A stretch of DNA of 40,000 nt from contig NZ_MBDL01000010.1 in NCBI RefSeq assembly GCF_001707755.1, positions 107,650-147,649 of the forward strand. Direction: 5' to 3'. Source of the DNA: Acinetobacter celticus (GTDB taxonomy: Bacteria; Pseudomonadota; Gammaproteobacteria; Pseudomonadales; Moraxellaceae). Positions 1,177 through 28,729 of the stretch are shown piece after piece; the first letter of the stretch is position 1, and the number at the start of each line of letters is the position of its first letter. The translations under genes and the position numbers were made by a program. The notes under the pieces are model-generated. The model did not search any database. It was given only the letters and a program-made list of their open reading frames with translations, and had not been told where the DNA came from.

Positions 1177-2384
1177 GATGTCAGCTCAACAATGGGGATG
1201 GTCACTTGTGTAATCTGTGCCCCTAGAAATTGGAATTCGATTTGATCCGCATCAAAACGATGTAGGCCCAAATAACATATGGTTTGAATGTCATTGCGAT
1301 GTGCATTAATCGCAGGTGAAACAGTGAGTGAACCACCGGTCTTGCCCGTAATTTCATGCGCAGTCCATGTACCATTTTTACGCTTCACCGCAATATGCTT
1401 GCGATCTGCTTCTACGACGTATTTGGTATTGGTACTCAGTGAGGTAGTGATATTCCCCGTGTTGAGAATATTCAAATGCTTTTCATATAAAGGCATCCAA
1501 AATTCTTGATAGCGCCCCATGCGACGAAATAAAAACTGACGATATTCTGTGTATTGATCCCAGCCTTTTAAAATCGATTTAAAGGGTTTTAGGTAGCGTG
1601 GTTTTTTCCAATGTGTAAACTGCTGAAAGCCACCCACATCGGCATCTACAATATTTTGATGCTGGGTCAGCGTCATTTCTAATGAATTTCCATCCAACAG
1701 CAAGGGTTTGAAATAAATATCTTCGCCCTGGTACTGTTCAGGAATATCACCACTATGCTCGGGTGAGTCTTCGGCAAGAACGCGGAACACAATGCTAGAA
1801 CTAGACCAAAACCCGCCCGTATTGACGGATGCATCGCCATCGATGATGCAAATCCGCATTGGCATAATTGAAGCATTCGAAACCGTCACATTTGAGCTAA
1901 TTCGAAAACCACCTTGATATTCAGTTTCTAATTCCTGAATAATTTCATTGGTTTCAGGATCTCGAATTTCTTCTTGAATAACGATGTAGCGACCGATACC
2001 AATAAGTTCCACAGCCTGAAAGCCTGTAGCGCTTTCAATTAAAGCAAAACCGACTCGAAGGTCGGCTGGGTGCACATTAGTCGGCATGATAATAAAGTCA
2101 TCGTTATCAACATCTGGGATGATTTGCCGAAACTGTGGCAGTGGAATGCCCCACTGTTTACGCAAATTTGCATACAGCATATGGAACATGTCACCCATGG
2201 CTTTACGCATATTGATGTAGTTAAAGCTCAATATCTGGCGCGGTGCATCACGGGAAATATAACGCTCTTCACTGCCATCAAATGACTCATGAACTTCGGT
2301 TTTGAACTCCAGACGTTCGGTTGAATCAAGCAGAGGGCAATTTGTTAATACGTGCACCTCACCGTATGATGTTTGTATTTTCAT
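1173..2384 (-). CDS. minor tail protein, distal-tail (Dit)/GTA g12-like by position
   Basis: 403 aa. It is the first large tail-tip gene after the tape measure and is translationally coupled to the hub gene. No motif recognised. Confidence 0.5.
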   Translation of the reverse strand: MKIQTSYGEVHVLTNCPLLDSTERLEFKTEVHESFDGSEERYISRDAPRQILSFNYINMRKAMGDMFHMLYANLRKQWGIPLPQFRQIIPDVDNDDFIIMPTNVHPADLRVGFALIESATGFQAVELIGIGRYIVIQEEIRDPETNEIIQELETEYQGGFRISSNVTVSNASIMPMRICIIDGDASVNTGGFWSSSSIVFRVLAEDSPEHSGDIPEQYQGEDIYFKPLLLDGNSLEMTLTQHQNIVDADVGGFQQFTHWKKPRYLKPFKSILKGWDQYTEYRQFLFRRMGRYQEFWMPLYEKHLNILNTGNITTSLSTNTKYVVEADRKHIAVKRKNGTWTAHEITGKTGGSLTVSPAINAHRNDIQTICYLGLHRFDADQIEFQFLGAQITQVTIPIVELTS

Positions 2385-3502: not shown

Positions 3503-6500
3503 TTAAGCCTTTAACATCCCATTTCTTTTTAAATGATACATGACAACCTTTTCGCCTTTTTTGCCGTACATTTCATTCATCATATCTGCACGATCATCAA
3601 AGATTCCAACACGTACATTACTTTCGATAGGTTGTGGATTAGCCGTCTGCGCCTTAACATTCGCCTGAGCCTGCTTCTCAGCCTGAACATCAGCACCGCG
3701 ATTAATAGCATCCACAGTTCCCATGCCAACGCGGTAGGTGTCTTGTGGAGTAACTAAACCGCCATCCGAATAACCTTTGGGTGGCTGAGATGTTCGCATG
3801 GCTTCCACCACATTCACACCGCCCCAACGCTTGATATCCTCCTGTGACCAAACCACTTCACCTTTATGAACGATACCTGCGGGATCGAACTTACCGCCAG
3901 CACCAGTGAAACCACCGTCGGCATAACCAGTTGGTTGTGCGACAGAACTAATAATAGATGCAATTTGCGCACCTTGGGCCATGGCACCAGCAATCATTGG
4001 GATATTGTATGGAAAGCCCATCTTTGAAGCTTGAGCGATATTCTGCCCCATTGCTAACGCGGCTTGAGCTACTGCAAATGCTTTCTCGACTGCAAAAGCA
4101 GCTGCATAGGCTTTTGATTTTTCACCGAAGATCGCACCCATCATCGTAGACATGCTGGATGCCATTTGCTCGCCATACCCCAACTGCAATTGAACAGAAG
4201 ACACTTGGTAAGCATTTTCAATGGCGATCATCCTGTCTACATACGCCTGATATGCCTGCTCTTTTAGTGCGTAGTTTTCACCAGCCATTGCAAGCTCAGC
4301 ATCAAATAAAGCTTGGGAGGCATCAAGTCGATCAAACCGTTCTTTTTCAAAATTGAATTGATCTGTCGTGCCCGTCATTTCAGCATTAATACCACCCCAT
4401 TGCTGGACTGCGGTATTTAGGTTTGTGCGCTTTTCTTCAGCTTGCAAGGCGTTTGCAATTTCTAGTTGCCGATTACGTTCTTCCAAATCTTGAGCACTTC
4501 GAGTTATACGAATGCGCTCAAGCTCCCAGTACCGTTCAGACTGAGCATTAGCACTTATTAATCCTTGTTGCATCTGAAAAATGCGCTGTTCTTTGGCTAG
4601 TTGGATTAGGCCGAGTTCGTGAGCACTCTCTTTGTCAGCAGAATCTTTTTTTAACTTGCGTTCTTCTACTAATAGCCCTTTGGTGGAATCAACACGAAGT
4701 TTCTTAATATTTGTCTGAGCTTTTAGTTTTTCAGACTCAGACATACTGTATTCACTCAATTCGAAATCAAGTTCTGTTGCATAAAGCTTTTTTCTAGCCT
4801 CAGATATAGTTCGCGCATCACCAATCATCTTTGTTTTTGAATCCGACTTTAATGATGAGTTATTGATTTTTTCAATTTCATTTTTTAAGTCAGTTTCAAT
4901 TCGGGTGAATTCACTGGTGTAGTCATAGATAAGACTTTTCGCATCCTCTAAAGCCTGTCTTGTATCGCGCTCTAATTCTTTTGCCTCTTTTTTTTGCTGA
5001 GTTAATGCTACTTTCGATGCCTTTGCAGAGGCACTTGCTGTGGCTTGAGCTACTTTCTGGCGAACCTCTCTCTGTTTATCCACTGCATCCAACTCATCAA
5101 GCATCTTCTTCTGCTCAATAGTTACGCCTTTAAACCCCTTCTTGGTATTCTCGTTATAGACCTCTGTCCATCGAGCAGCAGACTGACTGGATTTACCTTG
5201 CTTTTCGAATGCATTTTGAAGTTTCGCTGAGAATACATCCGAATTTAACTTGGTATTAACCTCTGATAGCGCTGATGCTAAATTTCGAACACCAGCAGCC
5301 GCATTATTACCAGCAGTGCTAGTGCTATTAAGCTCCCCACTTAGTTGGGAAATAAATTCTTTCTGGGTTTTAGCAGCTCCCCCTGCCTCATATACGGCTT
5401 TCGCAAAATTAGCTGTTTTATCCTTTGCATCTTGCGAAACTTTGCTTGAATTTTGAACCGATGTATTAAATCTATCTAGATCACCAGTTTTTTGGTATTC
5501 AGCAAAGAGCTTTGATAATTCAATTTGGGATTGAGATACAAATTCCCCCATATCCCCCATATTGCTCGCGTAAACCATAAGCTCAGCCGATGCTTTACGG
5601 TATGCCTCGGTCAATTCATCTAGTTTTTGTCGCTCAGCTGCCATTTGTGCATCGCGCTGAATCCCATTTAATTCTCGGTACTTAACAATGGCATCACCAA
5701 CGGCCTCGTTATTTTCCCGCAATGACTTTGTTGATTTTTCTGAATTATCACTTAGAAGCATATAACCTGCGGCTAGAGCCGTTACACCCAAGGTTAATAC
5801 GCCTGTCCAACCGCCCACCAACCCAAGTAAAGTTGATCCAATTTTACGACTATTATTTAGAGCATTTTGTGCAGCGGTTTCTGCAACTACAGCACCAGTG
5901 GAATTTTTAATTGCAATATTATAAGCAACCTCAGCCATAGCTAAATGCTGTGTGGCACGCGCTTGCTCATCTTTATTTTTAGCATTCACTAATGCCAATT
6001 GAGCCATTCTTAACTCTTGAGCAGCCAAAGAAGCAGTTTGTCTTGTGCGATTAACCTCAACTGTAGCTAATCGAACTTGGCTTTCAATTTCAGCGGTTAT
6101 TGATGCGCGTTTTTTATATGACTCATTGATAGAGCCACGAATGGCAACCGTTTGCTCCGCAATTCGCTTTGTTAAATAAGCAACACCTCCTAGCATTGCC
6201 ACATTTGCCACAGACTCTAGATTTTTTGCTAATTCCCCAAGCGCACCTGCCATAACACCTGTTGCACTTGTTGACTCGTTGGCTTTGCCAAGGTAAACAG
6301 TCACGGCGTTAGACAAAGTTGTAAAACCATCGGCCAAGCTGTTTTCCATGTTATTCGCGAGCTTTTCATTCTGCTCACGTGTTGCAATCAATGTTTTGAT
6401 CAAGTCTTCAAGTGAAACTTTACCTTCAGCACCCAATTTACGGATTTCAGCTTCAGTTTTGCCTGTTGTTTTTGCCATATCTGCAATTACATTGTCAGCA

Positions 6501-23089: not shown

Positions 23090-23729
23090 AATTAATCACA
23101 CACGTTCCACAACACGCTGAAATATTAGTTTCTGAAACAAACGGCGCATTCTTCGCAATTTCAATAAGGCGTTTGACTGATTCATCTGCGCCCCATCTTT
23201 TGGTCTCACCGAAGAACACTTCTACATCATGGCCCGCAAGATAATGCTTAGGCAGACCCGTATTATCGCTATAGATTGGCTCACCGTCTGCATCTCGCTC
23301 TACCCCAATGTGATACAGCTCATGTTCGATGAGTCGGCAAAATTCACGGTCAGTCGTATTTTCACAATAACTTGCATCAATGGTAATGAGGTAAACAGGT
23401 ACGGCGCCAAACCAGTCTCGCATCTGTTGCTCTTGGCGTGCTTTCTTCCATCCACCTTGGTTAAACATCACTTTTTCACATTGACCCAAGACCATTCTCT
23501 TTTTGGCAACACATGCAGATGAAGCCCAAGCAAACGCTAAAAAGTTCTCATCATCGTGAATCAGTTCTGCAATGTGGTCATGATCTGGGTTGTGAAGTTC
23601 ACCGCCAATCGTCAACCAGTTTTTAATGACCCAGTCTTTCAAATCCACGGCGGGCGCAAGCAGAATAGCTTCTTGTTCTTCTGCTCGGTCAATTAGGTCT
23701 GTCGGTGGAAATGGTCTCATCTGTTCCAT
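23088..23729 (-). CDS. putative phage metallopeptidase (HExxH)
   Basis: 213 aa. IEHELYHIGVERDADGEP...LAGHDVEVFFGETKRWG matches the phage putative-metallopeptidase family pattern. Confidence 0.7.
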   Translation of the reverse strand: MEQMRPFPPTDLIDRAEEQEAILLAPAVDLKDWVIKNWLTIGGELHNPDHDHIAELIHDDENFLAFAWASSACVAKKRMVLGQCEKVMFNQGGWKKARQEQQMRDWFGAVPVYLITIDASYCENTTDREFCRLIEHELYHIGVERDADGEPIYSDNTGLPKHYLAGHDVEVFFGETKRWGADESVKRLIEIAKNAPFVSETNISACCGTCVIN

Positions 23730-24126
23730 CCTCTAATCTCTCTAACTGATCTTTAATCCACTGAATGACATAACCCGATTCAATATGATCAGGCTCAAAG
23801 CGTATATGCCTATAACCCATATCTTCAGCTAAATCATATTTATTAAATGCGTTTGCGATCTTTCTTCCACCGCGACCAACCGACCATGGGCTACCCGCTA
23901 TTTCAATAAGAAGTTTCAACTTCACAATATGAAAATCGAATCGCCAATTTTTGGTAGATTCAAATTGAAATTTGCGCTCATAGCCAATCAGGTGTTCTTC
24001 TAATTCTTGAAATAAGGCTTCTTCCGCTTCCAGATATGCTTCTTTTGCCTTAGGTAATAGTTTGGCACGAGGCTTAGTTTTAGGTGGGCGTTTCTTGGTT
24101 TTCCAAAAATAGCTGTCAACATCCAT
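23689..24126 (-). CDS. Vsr/DUF559-like PD-(D/E)XK fold protein, degenerate paralogue of 27681..28127
   Basis: 145 aa. WRFDFHIVKLKLLIEIAGSPWSVGRGG...YRHIRF aligns by eye with WRADFHLIGMGILIEVEGGIWSNGRHTRG...YQVYRY. The EVEG motif is changed to EIAG. Confidence 0.6.
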   Translation of the reverse strand: MDVDSYFWKTKKRPPKTKPRAKLLPKAKEAYLEAEEALFQELEEHLIGYERKFQFESTKNWRFDFHIVKLKLLIEIAGSPWSVGRGGRKIANAFNKYDLAEDMGYRHIRFEPDHIESGYVIQWIKDQLERLEDGTDETISTDRPN

Positions 24127-25294: not shown

Positions 25295-25433
25295 TAGTAA
25301 CAACCCCTTTATGGAATAAAAAAATAGGAGACAAGTTGTGTCCACCCAAACTTAACATTCACATATTTCAGTAATATTATCAATGGTAAAAATTTACCTT
25401 TTATATCAAAACCCATAAGAACTTATTAAATAA

Positions 25434-25610
25434 TTAGAAGATATGTAACGTTTCACGCAAATTAGCAATACGTTCTTTCAGCCGAATCATCACATTATCA
25501 ATTGCGATTAACTCATTATGTCTTAAACCTGTTCGACTCAAGTTTTGATATTTACTCAGTTCATCACAACAGAACTGCAAATCTTTTTTAGCTTGTACAC
25601 GATCTGTCAT
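25434..25610 (-). CDS. 58-aa helical micro-protein (below ORF-track cutoff)
   Basis: Hand translation with RBS GAGGTAATC gives MTDRVQAKKDLQFCCDELSKYQNLSRTGLRHNELIAIDNVMIRLKERIANLRETLHIF, with stop TAA at 25434-25436. Confidence 0.4.
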   Translation of the reverse strand: MTDRVQAKKDLQFCCDELSKYQNLSRTGLRHNELIAIDNVMIRLKERIANLRETLHIF

Positions 25611-25630
25611 GATTACCTCGAATAGAAAAG

Positions 25631-25667
25631 AAAAACCCCGCCAACATCTAGAATGCGACGGGGTTTT
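25631..25667. terminator. hairpin with flanking A/T runs
   Basis: CCCCG...CGGGG stem with an 18-nt loop. Confidence 0.4.
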
Positions 25668-25692
25668 ATATGCCGTAATACGTTCGGCGAAA

Positions 25693-25809
25693 CTAGGTTA
25701 TCTCTTTAACCTTAAGGCAATCTCGACAAAACTTTAATTCACCATCAGTGCAGTGATGAATTTCAGTCACACCATGAAAGCCGAATAAGCATTTTAAAAA
25801 TTGGAACAT
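25693..25809 (-). CDS. 38-aa Cys/His-rich micro-protein (possible zinc ribbon)
   Basis: Hand translation with RBS AGGAGA gives MFQFLKCLFGFHGVTEIHHCTDGELKFCRDCLKVKEIT, with stop TAG at 25693-25695. Followed by hairpin 25631-25667. Confidence 0.35.
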   Translation of the reverse strand: MFQFLKCLFGFHGVTEIHHCTDGELKFCRDCLKVKEIT

Positions 25810-25820
25810 TTGATTCTCCT

Positions 25821-25844
25821 TACACCGGAGCTTACACCGGAGCT
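25821..25844. repeat. perfect 12-bp tandem duplication TACACCGGAGCT x2
   Basis: Copies at 25821-32 and 25833-44. The repeat abuts the RBS of the 38-aa micro-ORF on the minus strand. Confidence 0.8.
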
Positions 25845-26011
25845 AAGTTTTAATTTGGTGTAATTCCACCATTTAGATGTGACCTCAACGATATGGTACC
25901 CTCACAAATGAAGTTACCATCAGCAGGGTAAATGTATTCTTATGATTTTAAAGGTATCGAATTCGATCTAATTAAAACTGGCATATTCGCCATAATTAGA
26001 ATCTTAGTAAT

Positions 26012-26039
26012 AAAAAGCCCGATCAAATGACCGGGCTTT
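26012..26039 (-). terminator. intrinsic terminator after 26051..26269
   Basis: AAAGCCCG/CGGGCTTT 8-bp stem. Confidence 0.6.
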
Positions 26040-26050
26040 CGTTGTTATAA

Positions 26051-26269
26051 TCAATTGAGCTTATTTTTCAATATCAATTCAATTCGACTGGTAGTATCAA
26101 ATATACTCATTTCCGCATATCGCCAGAAACAAAATATTCGCGTACCAATAAGATATTTTTGCTTAATGTAATCAGAGGCCTTACCTCTATGAATTTCTCT
26201 TGCATTGAATCGAGCTTTATCTAGCCTGACTACCCATCCCTCTAAATCACCACCAATACAAATGTACAT
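26051..26269 (-). CDS. hypothetical protein
   Basis: 72-aa ORF followed by terminator 26012-26039. Confidence 0.45.
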   Translation of the reverse strand: MYICIGGDLEGWVVRLDKARFNAREIHRGKASDYIKQKYLIGTRIFCFWRYAEMSIFDTTSRIELILKNKLN

Positions 26270-26339
26270 CCTTGCTGTCCATTTGATTAATTTTCAACCA
26301 TGCCATGAGAGCCTCAATTTGCTCACATTATATTCATAA

Positions 26340-26830
26340 AATAAATTGCACATTTATTCCGTACGGCCCATATATCTAGGCGCCAGCTGTATTCATTTTT
26401 AAACCAGTTAAGGGATAAAACAGCTGGCATAGAACAATCCTGCTATACAGATAACGCATAGCAGGATTGAGTAGTGTGCTTTTAAGGCTACTGATGTGTT
26501 AAGAGGTCGCCAATCCTCAAGTGGTACTCACCTTTTGAAACATATAGAGCCCAAAATCTTCGCGGGGCTAGACGCTACTCACATTCACTAACAACCAAAT
26601 AGGCATGGTCACTTCGCAAAATGCTTTCATTCAATTTCGGGTTGGGTCATCACTCCCGATTCTGGGGGTTCCTGCATATCCTATTCATGCTCGATAAACT
26701 GCATGGGTTGTATCCTCTTTCGTGGGATCTATACGCGCTTACTTAAACAGTCTTTAGCTAATTAGCAAGCTTAAGTGTATGGGCATGGCTTTTCTCCAGA
26801 CAATAAAAAACCACCCTAGGGTGGTTTTTA
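26340..26830. ncRNA. candidate large structured RNA (family unknown, strand unresolved, plus-sense slightly favoured)
   Basis: No ORF of 60 aa or more in six frames across 26270-26858. About 48% GC in two hand-counted lines versus about 32% in a flanking line. Several perfect or near-perfect helices and competing pairings. Ends at bidirectional terminator 26805-26829. Confidence 0.3.
26805..26829. terminator. bidirectional terminator
   Basis: AACCACCC-ta-GGGTGGTT with 6 A upstream and 5 T downstream. Confidence 0.65.
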
Positions 26831-26858
26831 TGAAATTGATTAGTTTTTAAACGATTAC

Positions 26859-27068
26859 TTAGGTCTGCATACCACCTAGGCTAGTACAAAACAGGTTAAT
26901 TGCAGAATTACTTAAAAAGTTTGAAACGGTTAAGATTAGGTTTCTCTTCATAGGCGCCTCCACATTTAGATTAGGGGAATTAGATTGATTGCTTGTTTTA
27001 AATACTACATAACCAAATACAAGTGCAATTAAACCGTAAACTAGTGATGGAATCGAACCATCAGCCAC
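26859..27068 (-). CDS. small membrane protein, first ORF of the late transcript
   Basis: 69 aa with a GTG start. TM segment IPSLVYGLIALVFGYVVF. Weak RBS. Followed by terminator 26805-26829. Confidence 0.35.
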   Translation of the reverse strand: MADGSIPSLVYGLIALVFGYVVFKTSNQSNSPNLNVEAPMKRNLILTVSNFLSNSAINLFCTSLGGMQT

Positions 27069-27122
27069 ATACCCAGACCTAAATAATCTTCTTCAATAAT
27101 AACACAAAAATTGAAAAGCATT

Positions 27123-27144
27123 AAAAAACCCACCAGATGATGAG
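27123..27144 (-). terminator. tR'-like intrinsic terminator ending a roughly 65-nt leader
   Basis: Minus-sense stem CUCAUC/GGUGGG (two G.U pairs, valid only in minus sense) followed by UUUUUU. Confidence 0.5.
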
Positions 27145-27193
27145 CTTTTAATTAACTTTAGTGCTTTACATACACTTCGGTCACTATAGCAGA

Positions 27194-27222
27194 AATATGC
27201 CATATCCCATGCGCACGGTCAA
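27194..27222 (-). promoter_or_regulatory. PR'-like late promoter
   Basis: Minus strand reads TTGACC (27222-27217), a 17-nt spacer, then TGG-CATATT (extended -10, 27202-27194). It lies 13 nt downstream of the Q stop. Confidence 0.5.
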
Positions 27223-27234
27223 CAGATTCTGATC

Positions 27235-27684
27235 TCAATTTAATTTTAAACGCTTATCATGACCACAAAGGAAGAATTTACCTGCATAAACCATGCTCTT
27301 AATTGAAGTTCTTCCGAGAATAAACTCGTTTGCCATCTGATCAAACGACATACCTCGGACATTCTTCTCAATAAAAAGATTAACGGCCACTTTGGCTGAA
27401 TCACAGATACGACTTGAAAATTTTAAATCAATGATAAGTTTTCGCACCTCATTTGCTTCAAAATCATCAATACTGCAAATCAATTGATTCTTACGCGGTG
27501 CCACCCCCTTGTTATTCTCGCAAATCAACCAATAAATCTGATTAACGCCCAAGCGGTCTGGTTCATTCCCTGATTTCATGCGACAGGTTTGAATGTACGC
27601 CCCATACTGCTTAAACCACTCTTCAGCTGTAAACTTTGACCAATCCATTGTTTGTGCTTTTACCGCTACATTCATCCCAATCAC
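27235..27684 (-). CDS. late-gene antiterminator, phage-82/Stx-phage Q-like
   Basis: 149 aa. EEWFKQYGAYI ... LICSIDDFEANEVRKLIIDLK ... NVRGMSFDQMANEFILGRTSIKSMVYAGKFFLCG parallels the LERWGAW...CCDDDA...GMTF...AEG layout of Q82-type proteins. A promoter plus terminated leader lies just downstream. Confidence 0.6.
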   Translation of the reverse strand: MIGMNVAVKAQTMDWSKFTAEEWFKQYGAYIQTCRMKSGNEPDRLGVNQIYWLICENNKGVAPRKNQLICSIDDFEANEVRKLIIDLKFSSRICDSAKVAVNLFIEKNVRGMSFDQMANEFILGRTSIKSMVYAGKFFLCGHDKRLKLN

Positions 27685-28127
27685 CCTATTCGCTTTAAAA
27701 TTTCGTCGATTGCTAAACCGTTTTTTACTTGTTCAGTGCTGTACCGATACACCTGATAACCCAACCCCTGTGCCGAGTTATATTTCGCCATGTCCCCTAA
27801 ATAACCTTTACCCCGTGTATGACGGCCATTACTCCAAATCCCGCCTTCAACCTCAATCAAAATACCCATTCCAATTAAATGAAAATCAGCTCTCCACTTC
27901 CGATCTGCATTAAATTGAAACTCCTGTTCAAAACTGATTTTGTGTGCCTTCAGGTGCTGAGATAAAACCGCTTCACCCTCACTCACCACTCGTTCTTTCT
28001 TGACCGATGCAGGACGCTTGGCCCTGCGTTTCGGTTTATTGATTTTCTTGTACTCAGCGAGTGAGATGCTGGTCACTGGCACCTCGCTTCTCGAAAAAGA
28101 ACACCACTGGATCAGGCTTAATCTCAA
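27681..28127 (-). CDS. Vsr/DUF559-like PD-(D/E)XK endonuclease
   Basis: WRADFHLIGMGILIEVEGGIWSNGRHTRGKGYLGDMAKYNSAQGLGYQVYRYS. The likely true start is GTG 28076 (RBS GAGG, 5-nt spacer) rather than TTG 28127. Confidence 0.65.
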   Translation of the reverse strand: MRLSLIQWCSFSRSEVPVTSISLAEYKKINKPKRRAKRPASVKKERVVSEGEAVLSQHLKAHKISFEQEFQFNADRKWRADFHLIGMGILIEVEGGIWSNGRHTRGKGYLGDMAKYNSAQGLGYQVYRYSTEQVKNGLAIDEILKRIG

Positions 28128-28467
28128 TCAAGCCAAAACGATGTAAATGACGCGCATGAGTGCTATCTCTAAGCAATTGAACATCACGATAGTGCTCAAT
28201 GGATTTACGCCATGATTCAAGGCTCATTGAGTGTTTGTTTATATTGCATGGAACACATGAGGGGTTAAGGTTCTCAATAGTGTCTAGATGTGGCTTATGC
28301 ATTTCACCAGTAGACTTAACACCTCGCTTTGGACACCAAGCTAAAACCCTATCTACCGCTTCAATATGGTCTGCATGCCACTTATCGCCCAACTCACATC
28401 CGCAATATGCACAATGTCCGTCATACTTCATTTTGAGTTCTGCGCGCTGTTTCTTATTCAGTTGCAT
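28054..28467 (-). CDS. HNH endonuclease
   Basis: HCAYCGCEL...WHADHIEAVDR...NLNPSCVPCNINKHS. ATG 28467 has RBS GAGGTGAGC. The track start at 28497 is an upstream extension. Confidence 0.8.
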   Translation of the reverse strand: MQLNKKQRAELKMKYDGHCAYCGCELGDKWHADHIEAVDRVLAWCPKRGVKSTGEMHKPHLDTIENLNPSCVPCNINKHSMSLESWRKSIEHYRDVQLLRDSTHARHLHRFGLIEIKPDPVVFFFEKRGASDQHLTR

Positions 28468-28729
28468 GCTCACCTCGCAGGGCTTCTTCCACCTCATTAA
28501 TCAAGGCCAATGTTTCACACTCGATCATAAATTTTCCAATAAACTTACGATTTTCATTACATACACCTAATGTCGAATTAATACGCTCCTGCAACGCATC
28601 CCGCTCTTTTTTCATCCCGATATAACACCGCTCCATGTTATTCAGCTGAGTTTTAAGCTCTGCAATCTGATCCTGTTGTTCCTGCATCTTCCCGATGTAG
28701 CGCTGATTCATTTCTTTTAAATCACTCAT
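28454..28729 (-). CDS. coiled-coil hypothetical protein
   Basis: 91 aa. Heptad-like, charged, and coupled to its neighbours by overlaps. Confidence 0.5.
   Translation of the reverse strand: MSDLKEMNQRYIGKMQEQQDQIAELKTQLNNMERCYIGMKKERDALQERINSTLGVCNENRKFIGKFMIECETLALINEVEEALRGEHATE

Follow-up and report, generated by a model that had tools for sequence, protein, structure and literature searches.

The 40,000-nucleotide (nt) stretch of the Acinetobacter celticus genome analyzed here (the window; contig NZ_MBDL01000010.1, positions 107,650 to 147,649) contains a segment, 26270-26858, that a first-pass annotation made from the sequence alone had described as a plus-strand structured RNA of ~590 nt and of unknown class. 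From sequence comparison we assign, with high confidence, the minus-strand interval 26799..26548 (~250 nt) of this segment to the Rfam family RF03046 (Pseudomonadales-1), as a type-1 member with an extra 5' domain of ~90 nt. The genomic rule that emerged concerns temperate elements with a late control region of lambdoid type: the RNA lies directly past the terminator of that region. The reading that we favor, at a probability of about 0.6, is that of a stable non-coding RNA that would be produced by Q-dependent terminator read-through, be trimmed and act in trans, probably through a bound protein. The "mystery RNA" is re-filed in this way into a known orphan family; the kind of object was already known, and what is new here are the 5' domain, the division into types 1 and 2 and the positional rule.

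Membership and structure of the RF03046 RNA

Scanning of the whole window with the Rfam 15 covariance models (cmscan) returned RF03046 as the sole family at gathering thresholds, and the label of unknown class was dropped. The match was full-length (model positions 1-164 of 164), lay on the minus strand (26707..26548) and scored 75 bits (gathering threshold 68; E = 1.3e-15). A permissive scan of 25400-27400, with E values up to 5, gave no plus-strand match and added nothing credible, and neither ARAGORN nor Rfam detected a tRNA or tmRNA in the window. Rfam types the family as "Gene; sRNA" (small RNA), and we presume that it originated from the comparative screen of Weinberg et al. (2017). The main text of that paper (PMC5737381) does not discuss the Pseudomonadales-1 family, and a literature search on the family name found no paper; to judge by the literature that could be searched, RF03046 has stood in Rfam for years without a function or a follow-up. 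Its host order fits, the genome matches that carry an organism name being Acinetobacter (Pseudomonadales).

About 130 related loci, mostly IMG/VR prophage contigs, were compared. Successive searches of IMG/VR with patterns taken from the most conserved Rfam nucleotides retrieved 38 and 99 contigs; chance accounted for about 18 of the pattern matches. RF03046 turned out to be common in the prophage-derived contigs of this collection (~95 loci), and all true related loci that were scanned passed the Rfam gathering threshold (~74-114 bits). Two types could be distinguished. Type 2 (49 loci) contains the linker of the Rfam consensus, GCCUUCGAGUAAA, and type 1 (40 loci plus seven found later, the window included) contains ~90 conserved nt on the 5' side of Rfam position 1. 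A pairing between GCCUU of the type-2 linker and AAGGC of the 3' tail was considered and dropped, the GCCAU variants being uncompensated.

The core of the window copy (26548..26707, minus strand) comprises the helices P1 (26706-26701 with 26690-26685), P2 (26662-26639, with GGG at 26657-55 and CCC at 26646-44), P3 (26630-28 with 26574-72), P4 (26624-26581) and P5 (26569-26548), together with a conserved internal loop in which AAA (26627-25) faces GAGUAG (26580-75). Of the 46 model pairs, 34 are canonical in the window copy, six are non-canonical and six are gapped out; all five helices keep a core, and this is the second-weakest copy scored. All highly conserved nucleotides of the family are present, namely the GGG..UG....CCC hairpin and GAAAG opposite (U)GAGUAGC. 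The invariance of these motifs across our set of loci is partly circular, since most loci were fished with them. Loci fished by the 5' domain alone showed limited motif variation (GAAACC, GGGAGUAGC, GGUAGUAGC and GGGAUUAGC) as well as co-changes in P1 (CAUGC/GCAUG to CACAC/GUGUG) and in the terminal pair of P4 (GAAAGC...GUGAG to GAAACC...GGGAG). A sarcin-ricin or loop-E reading of the AAA/GAGUAG loop, suggested by a resemblance, is not claimed: the variant GAUUAG of locus L121 breaks the AGUA core. In comparison with the Rfam record, the window copy shares P1-P5, the GGG..UG....CCC hairpin, the GAAAG/GAGUAG loop and the Acinetobacter/Pseudomonadales home. Its subtype adds helices A and B in the ~90-nt 5' domain, and its position behind a late-promoter and terminator unit by a Q-like gene, often with tRNAs, does not appear in the Rfam record shown.

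The type-1-specific domain (26708..26799, minus strand) lies outside the Rfam model and was modeled jointly with P1 (alignment A3, model R1). It contains a GGAG motif (26797-26794), which is found 3-8 nt past the terminator T-run in nearly all type-1 copies. Helix A (26770-26764 with 26743-26737) shows compensatory changes in six of its seven pairs, and its loop holds the 8-nt self-complementary sequence UUAGCUAA (26761-26754), kept in 23 of 26 sequences; the variant of locus L008, CUAGCUAG, is still self-complementary. Helix B (26728-26725 with 26715-26712, capped by C-GAAA-G at 26722-26717) shows compensatory changes in four of five pairs, with three pair types each. R1 scored the window at 129 bits (E = 2e-30; 26799..26678), and its matches were confined to type-1 loci (84-153 bits). 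In 26 distinct sequences of the 5' domain plus P1, 97.2% of the cells were paired (20-38% with slid partners), changes on both sides were seen in 12 of 21 pairs, and the observed score was reached by none of 500 shuffles. These counts lean towards R1, since the alignments were fitted to it; the uncorrected MAFFT alignment of the domain was already 92.8% paired, with nine covarying pairs. The 5'-domain pattern alone fished the seven new loci, and the core was present in all six of them with enough sequence. The domain is always accompanied by the core, and therefore both form one unit. RF03046 copies are structured RNAs whose structure shows covariation.

Two further candidates in the 5' domain were rejected. 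A mini open reading frame (ORF) of 10 codons (26786..26754, minus strand; MPIHLSLLIS), preceded by GGAG with a 7-nt spacer to its ATG, was considered as a leader peptide. It runs across the 5' strand of helix A and into its loop, measures 4, 5 or 10 codons in the nearest relatives and has no start codon in most type-1 copies. It was discarded as a family feature because its apparent conservation is that of helix A. A long-range pairing of CCCAU (26783-26779) with AUGGG/AUAGG after P1 showed no compensatory changes and is mismatched in the window subclade. Helix B of locus L024 is chimeric, with its 5' strand from the L004 group and its 3' strand from the L005 group, and all four pairs are broken; this is direct evidence of recombination within the RNA gene.

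The RF03046 RNA is encoded by the minus strand, in the sense of the late operon, as are all genes that flank it. The one-strand Rfam match agrees in this respect with the downstream terminators and the adjacent tRNA genes of relatives, and the cells of the covarying helices A, B and P1 contain, when read in the minus sense, 12 G.U against 3 A.C combinations. A strand comparison with RNAalifold on MAFFT alignments gave no information, since an alignment from sequence alone does not bring the structures of types 1 and 2 into register. The plus strand had been preferred in the first-pass annotation on account of four G.U pairs that work in that sense only. Two of them belong to pairings foreign to the family, one lies outside the family P1, and the fourth corresponds to a P1 variant (GAAU for GGAU) of the subclade formed by the window and loci L118, L120 and L121; neither that argument nor the strand assignment was upheld.

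Late control region, downstream context and distribution

Upstream of the RNA, and on the same strand, a gene coding for a protein of 149 amino acids (aa; 27235..27684) matched PHROG 79, "anti-termination protein Q-like" (E = 1.9e-20). Homologues of this Q-like protein were found by tblastn in Acinetobacter phages only, some of them annotated as antiterminator Q, and searches of Pfam, NCBIfam and PDB sequences gave no match. Right after its stop codon, a promoter scan revealed a late promoter-like region (27183..27222) consisting of a -35 element TTGACC (27222-27217), a 17-nt spacer with an imperfect palindrome (~27218-27207), an extended -10 element TG-CATATT (27199-27194) and, five bases past the -10, a second -10-like sequence, TATAGT (27188-27183). 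A small hairpin separates TATAGT from a first intrinsic terminator (27124..27149; AAAAGCTCATC...GATGGGCTTTTTT in relatives), similar to tR', which is predicted to close a leader transcript of ~65-70 nt (~27187..27120). The same promoter architecture is common to 16 related loci, where the spacer palindrome varies in sequence and stays palindromic, as expected if it co-evolves with the cognate Q-like protein. In phage lambda, the late promoter pR' is constitutive; Q binds to an element of this promoter, and a -10-like pause signal close to it is followed by the terminator tR'. By analogy, the region may be a constitutive late promoter, with the spacer palindrome as a Q-binding site and TATAGT as a sigma-dependent pause element. 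The lambdoid order of Q gene, promoter, -10-like element and terminator is complete and conserved as sequence, and the earlier placement of a structured RNA in a late-operon leader downstream of a Q-like gene was borne out.

A second intrinsic terminator (26806..26829), predicted to be active on both strands, as the first-pass annotation had proposed, is located immediately 5' of the RNA. It is a perfect palindrome (12+12) between an A run and a T run, and the 3' parts of the two terminators are repeats of each other (repeats D1 and D7). It belongs to an extra stretch of ~290 nt (26830-27120, with a doubtful 69-aa ORF and this second terminator) that is missing in the relatives examined: in loci L031, L011 and L054 the T-run of tR' abuts the RNA directly, and a consensus scan of L054 and L011 detected no other promoter between terminator and RNA. 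The 69-aa ORF (26859-27068) has a GTG start, a hydrophobic N-terminus and no family matches, and is bracketed by a 15-nt inverted repeat (26853-67 with 27074-88). At its ends the stretch repeats the end of the Q-like gene (30 nt) and the terminator (12 nt), which gives it the look of a scar left by recombination between two Q/terminator junctions.

Downstream of the RNA, the ORFs immediately 3' belong to many unrelated clusters, and no gene is conserved in this place across loci. Type-2 copies and several type-1 copies (the L001 group, L029 and L012) have their own intrinsic terminator within ~5-30 nt. In type 2 it lies ~25 nt after P5, often directly followed by tRNA-Arg(UCU); tRNA-Met often precedes the RNA in relatives, 21 of the 79 distinct contexts (27%) include same-strand tRNA genes no further than 400 nt away, and in L012 the order is tRNA, RNA, tRNA. 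In the window, a terminator proper to the RNA is not clear, and 280 nt of unrelated sequence precede the next ORF. By eye, loci L004, L011, L018 and their relatives contain GGAGG and an ATG ~10 nt after P5, with CUCCGA as codons 2-3, which can pair with the GGAGG ribosome-binding site or with UUUGGAGCA at the 5' edge of the RNA; such pairing could loop the RNA as a whole and serve as a gate for translation.

The pattern of conserved Rfam nucleotides, applied to contigs of one genome per species, yielded three true matches, in Acinetobacter sp. BSP-28, in the Acinetobacter strain ANC 3789 and in a 3.7-kb contig (L039) labeled as an Oscillospiraceae metagenome-assembled genome, as would be consistent with a variable, prophage-borne element. 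The Oscillospiraceae label is probably a binning error. L039 contains two RF03046 copies of different type on the same strand, ~1.5 kb apart (3736..3563, type 2, 113.7 bits; 2059..1891, type 1, 108.3 bits), the type-1 copy being the closest relative of the window copy (84% identity over 214 nt). Comparison by blastn of the window copy, a type-1 copy and a type-2 copy with 50,697 GenBank phage records gave no match. These records include Acinetobacter Vieuvirus phages, which agree in gene order and possess homologues of the Q-like gene; the carriers of RF03046 may be prophages that seldom yield plaque-forming isolates. The RNA is absent from related phages and contigs with homologous Q-like genes, and therefore it is an accessory cargo element.

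In phage HK022, put sites lie upstream of the terminators that they suppress and need neither Q nor N protein. They are structured RNAs of a phage operon leader that act on the transcribing polymerase, and may to that extent resemble the present case; RF03046 differs in its position, downstream of the terminator and beside a Q-like gene, and related phages can dispense with it. According to PMC6266700 and PMC8065619, lambdoid Stx phages carry tRNA genes in the interval from pR'-tR' to the lysis and stx genes. RF03046 holds this slot just past Q, pR' and tR', and a common logic of Q-dependent read-through and processing may be presumed for both; the RF03046 RNA is, however, not a tRNA, and its processing is presumed from the context. 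PMC7547250 describes StxS, a case in which the short pR'-to-tR' by-product can be a functional sRNA. The counterpart of lambda 6S and StxS in the window would be the short leader (~27187..27120) that ends at the first terminator, whereas RF03046 lies past that terminator, so that its production would require failure of termination and not success.

Proposed function and alternative explanations

The differing downstream genes, the copies with their own terminators, the same-strand tRNA genes, the tandem copies in L039 and the accessory distribution point to a free-standing, trans-acting RNA. The genomic rule predicts expression that is Q-dependent and follows induction, and suggests a stable, processed RNA. 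In the lysogen, host RNA polymerase would start at the late promoter (27222-27194) and halt at the two terminators (27149-27124 and 26829-26806), so that the RNA would not be made. After induction, the Q-like protein (27684-27235) would render polymerase terminator-resistant, and this RNA would be the first product. It would fold into seven helices (A, B and P1-P5) and probably be trimmed to a discrete, stable form of ~250 nt, as are the phage tRNAs next to which it is encoded in many relatives. Late in infection it would probably act in trans, most likely as a protein-binding scaffold or decoy, with binding through the AAA/GAGUAG internal loop and the conserved hairpin loops.

Several observations weigh against this reading. 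The Q-like assignment depends on one PHROG label, on GenBank annotations of distant homologues and on the promoter architecture, and in many loci the upstream gene encodes another protein (PHROG 5656, function unknown), which is accompanied by a different but analogous unit of promoter, hairpin and terminator. The L004 group, with a ribosome-binding site and ATG ~10 nt past the RNA and a possible sequestering hairpin, looks cis-regulatory. The conserved RNA (26540-26805) is not more stable than its shuffles (z = +0.46). The window copy is the second-weakest member scored, with L115 alone being lower (73.8 bits), and its consensus fold (-19.7 kcal/mol) lies 15 kcal/mol above the minimum-energy fold (-35.0 kcal/mol); it may be partly decayed. 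Finally, the RNA ends, the Q dependence and the processing are predictions from sequence.

An alternative that we consider possible but unlikely is a leader acting in cis, as an antitermination aid in the manner of HK022 put, by stabilizing the 5' end of the late mRNA, by recruiting ribosomes or by gating translation. The RNA always follows a late terminator immediately and shares the orientation of the late genes, GGAG is near the terminator T-run in nearly all type-1 copies, and in the L004 group the GGAGG-ATG 10 nt past P5 has, by eye, an alternative pairing with the GGAG of the 5' edge. Such a leader agrees poorly with a following gene that is not conserved, with the many copies insulated by their own terminator or by tRNA genes, with the 280 nt that separate RNA and ORF in the window and with a tandem pair of copies; phages with homologous Q-like genes manage without the RNA, and elements of the put type act before, not after, the terminators that they suppress. 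A riboswitch in particular would call for a conserved class of downstream genes, which was not found, and the possible gating hairpin is limited to the L004 subgroup. Somewhat less probable again is an independent sRNA gene (moron) that would have a promoter and a terminator of its own, be expressed in the lysogen and act on host targets. Intrinsic terminators bracket the RNA in most loci, the Rfam type of the family is that of an sRNA gene, and in type 2 a weak sigma-70-like promoter (TTGTTG, 17-18 nt, TATCCT) can be discerned by eye between T-run and P1. The spacer of this candidate, however, forms a covarying hairpin instead (TTGTC/GACAA versus TTGCC/GGCAA), a conserved -10 is absent from type 1, in which no consistent candidate appeared, and the consensus scan found no promoter between terminator and RNA in the window either. 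In L094 and L103 there is no room for one, since P1 begins 5 nt past the T-run, and we lean against a promoter of its own.

That the phage forms a particle late in its cycle, as a ribonucleoprotein or from RNA only, after the fashion of GOLLD and ROOL, seems to us more doubtful still. The RNA would be switched on by Q, co-processed with tRNAs and self-associated through its UUAGCUAA loop (CUAGCUAG in L008), with a role related to translation or to anti-defense; it might, for instance, divert a host nuclease or toxin from its tRNA or rRNA target by serving as a decoy. GOLLD and ROOL RNAs measure ~600-800 nt, and the RF03046 RNA differs from them in being much smaller (~250 nt) and in having different hosts; their Rfam models gave no match in the window at gathering thresholds nor in 25400-27400 at E values up to 5. 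They are prophage-borne orphan structured RNAs often found beside tRNA genes (PMC5737381) and, according to a preprint (bioRxiv 10.1101/2024.12.08.627333), form RNA-only multimers. The likeness consists in the prophage setting, the neighboring tRNA genes in 27% of contexts and the self-complementary hairpin loop of the 5' domain; multimerization of the RF03046 RNA is pure speculation. At the far end of the scale are two explanations to which we give very little credit. A DNA-level element (a site for protein binding, recombination or packaging) would suit the 8-bp palindrome in the helix A loop (TTAGCTAA; CTAGCTAG in L008), of the kind favored by dimeric DNA-binding proteins, and helices are identical on both strands. 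The compensatory changes in seven separate helices, however, keep pairing and not sequence, G.U is tolerated far more than A.C, the GNRA-capped hairpin and the asymmetric conserved internal loop are features of RNA, and the sequence fits an Rfam-curated RNA covariance model. The most improbable of all is the originally proposed plus-strand RNA of ~590 nt (26270-26858), antisense to the late operon, ending at 26805-29 and switch-like. Its plus strand folds better than shuffles, the helices listed for it exist, with four G.U pairs that are plus-only in this one sequence, and a weak promoter-like site lies on that strand at 26305-26334. The comparative data contradict it: Rfam gave no plus-strand match, half of the interval is non-conserved and part of it travels separately, the preference for G.U over A.C holds in the minus sense across the family, and terminators and tRNA genes of relatives are in the minus sense relative to the window.

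Three additions make RF03046 approachable by experiment: a larger RNA with a covarying 5' domain, the genomic rule and the evidence for accessory cargo. Should a function emerge (for instance translation support, anti-defense or particle formation), it would be relevant to the prophages of the priority pathogen Acinetobacter baumannii and their biology. If the particle reading were true, the RNA would constitute a new accessory RNA class for Acinetobacter temperate phages, with a defined on-switch and a tractable host.

Composition of the remaining segment and neighboring genes

The 590-nt interval is a mosaic of four pieces: the second terminator (26829-26806), the RNA (26799..26548), a junction (26547..26430) and the 5' region of a portable module (26429..26270). 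Among the aligned relatives, conservation in the RNA sense runs from ~26815 to ~26545 and is at background in 26545..26270; blastn and tblastx of 26270-26548 produced no match among ~100 related loci. A single 590-nt unit was accordingly rejected in favor of ~250 conserved nt and 280 nt of unrelated modules. The junction (minus strand) is present only in the window and in the identical contig L107 (GCA_965136485.1), which was found by exact look-up of the 72-aa protein described below. It contains a perfect 12-bp hairpin (26469-26458 with 26446-26435) outside the conserved RNA, at a position held by an intrinsic terminator in L106 and L110.

The portable module (26042..26429, minus strand) consists of a 160-nt 5' region, with the hairpin GCCAGCTG...CAGCTGGC (26428-26420/26390-26382), and an ORF of 72 aa (26269-26051; PHROG 1523). 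It is 96.9% identical in five other contigs (L106 and L108-L111), all of them without RF03046; the module travels separately, which explains why this part of the interval is unmatched in RF03046 loci. In L106 and L108 it directly precedes a set of genes for a phage lysozyme, a BubE-domain protein and a 125-aa protein, with recA and an MgtC-family gene alongside, apparently outside a full prophage. A holin function for the 72-aa ORF was rejected, as it has no hydrophobic segments.

All seven helices proposed in the first-pass annotation exist at their coordinates in the sequence, and three of them coincide with family helices: 26683-90/26701-08 with P1, 26637-41/26655-59 with P2 and 26548-52/26565-69 with P5. 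The pairing 26601-06/26621-26 is not one of the family, and the other three lie in or reach into DNA unmatched in RF03046 loci, the long-range helix (26469-77 with 26572-80) among them. The same applies to the pairings interpreted as switch-like. CAATCCT does occur twice (26435 and 26511) opposite AGGATTG (26463), and GAGTAG and CTACT are where they had been reported; these sequences lie in or reach into the non-conserved DNA that found no match in ~100 related loci.

With regard to composition, the local G+C contents given earlier were exact (0.483 for 26521-26580, 0.483 for 26641-26700 and 0.317 for 26101-26160). Enrichment applies to 26548-26800 (0.451) and not to the whole segment (0.406, with a window mean of 0.397). 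Compared with dinucleotide shuffles, the whole segment folds with z = -3.8 (plus strand) and -3.1 (minus strand), and the non-conserved part 26270-26547 with z = -4.85; the excess folding energy is due to this part and not to the conserved RNA. The segment contains no ORF of 60 aa or more, as reported, and its longest ORF is of 41 aa (26621-26746, plus strand) in place of ~24 codons. A decayed protein gene under 26270-26580 was rejected, since tblastx against all related loci gave a best E of 0.26. The exclusion of retron msr-msd, bridge RNA and omega RNA was sustained by ten flanking ORFs scanned, from which reverse transcriptase, recombinase and TnpB/IscB domains are absent.

The neighbors of the RNA in the window code for the Q-like protein, HNH or DUF559-like endonucleases, small unknown proteins and a metallopeptidase-like protein. 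Two paralogous genes of ~146 aa (27681-28127 and 23689-24126, minus strand; PHROG 503, weakly DUF559/HNH-like) lie on either side of the late-leader region, the first immediately ahead of the Q-like gene and the second immediately ahead of the metallopeptidase-like and terminase genes; an HNH endonuclease ORF (28054-28497) overlaps the first of them. Between two bidirectional terminators (~25636-25670 and ~26014-26040), the intergenic sequence contains a perfect tandem duplication of the 12-mer CTTACACCGGAG (25819-25842).

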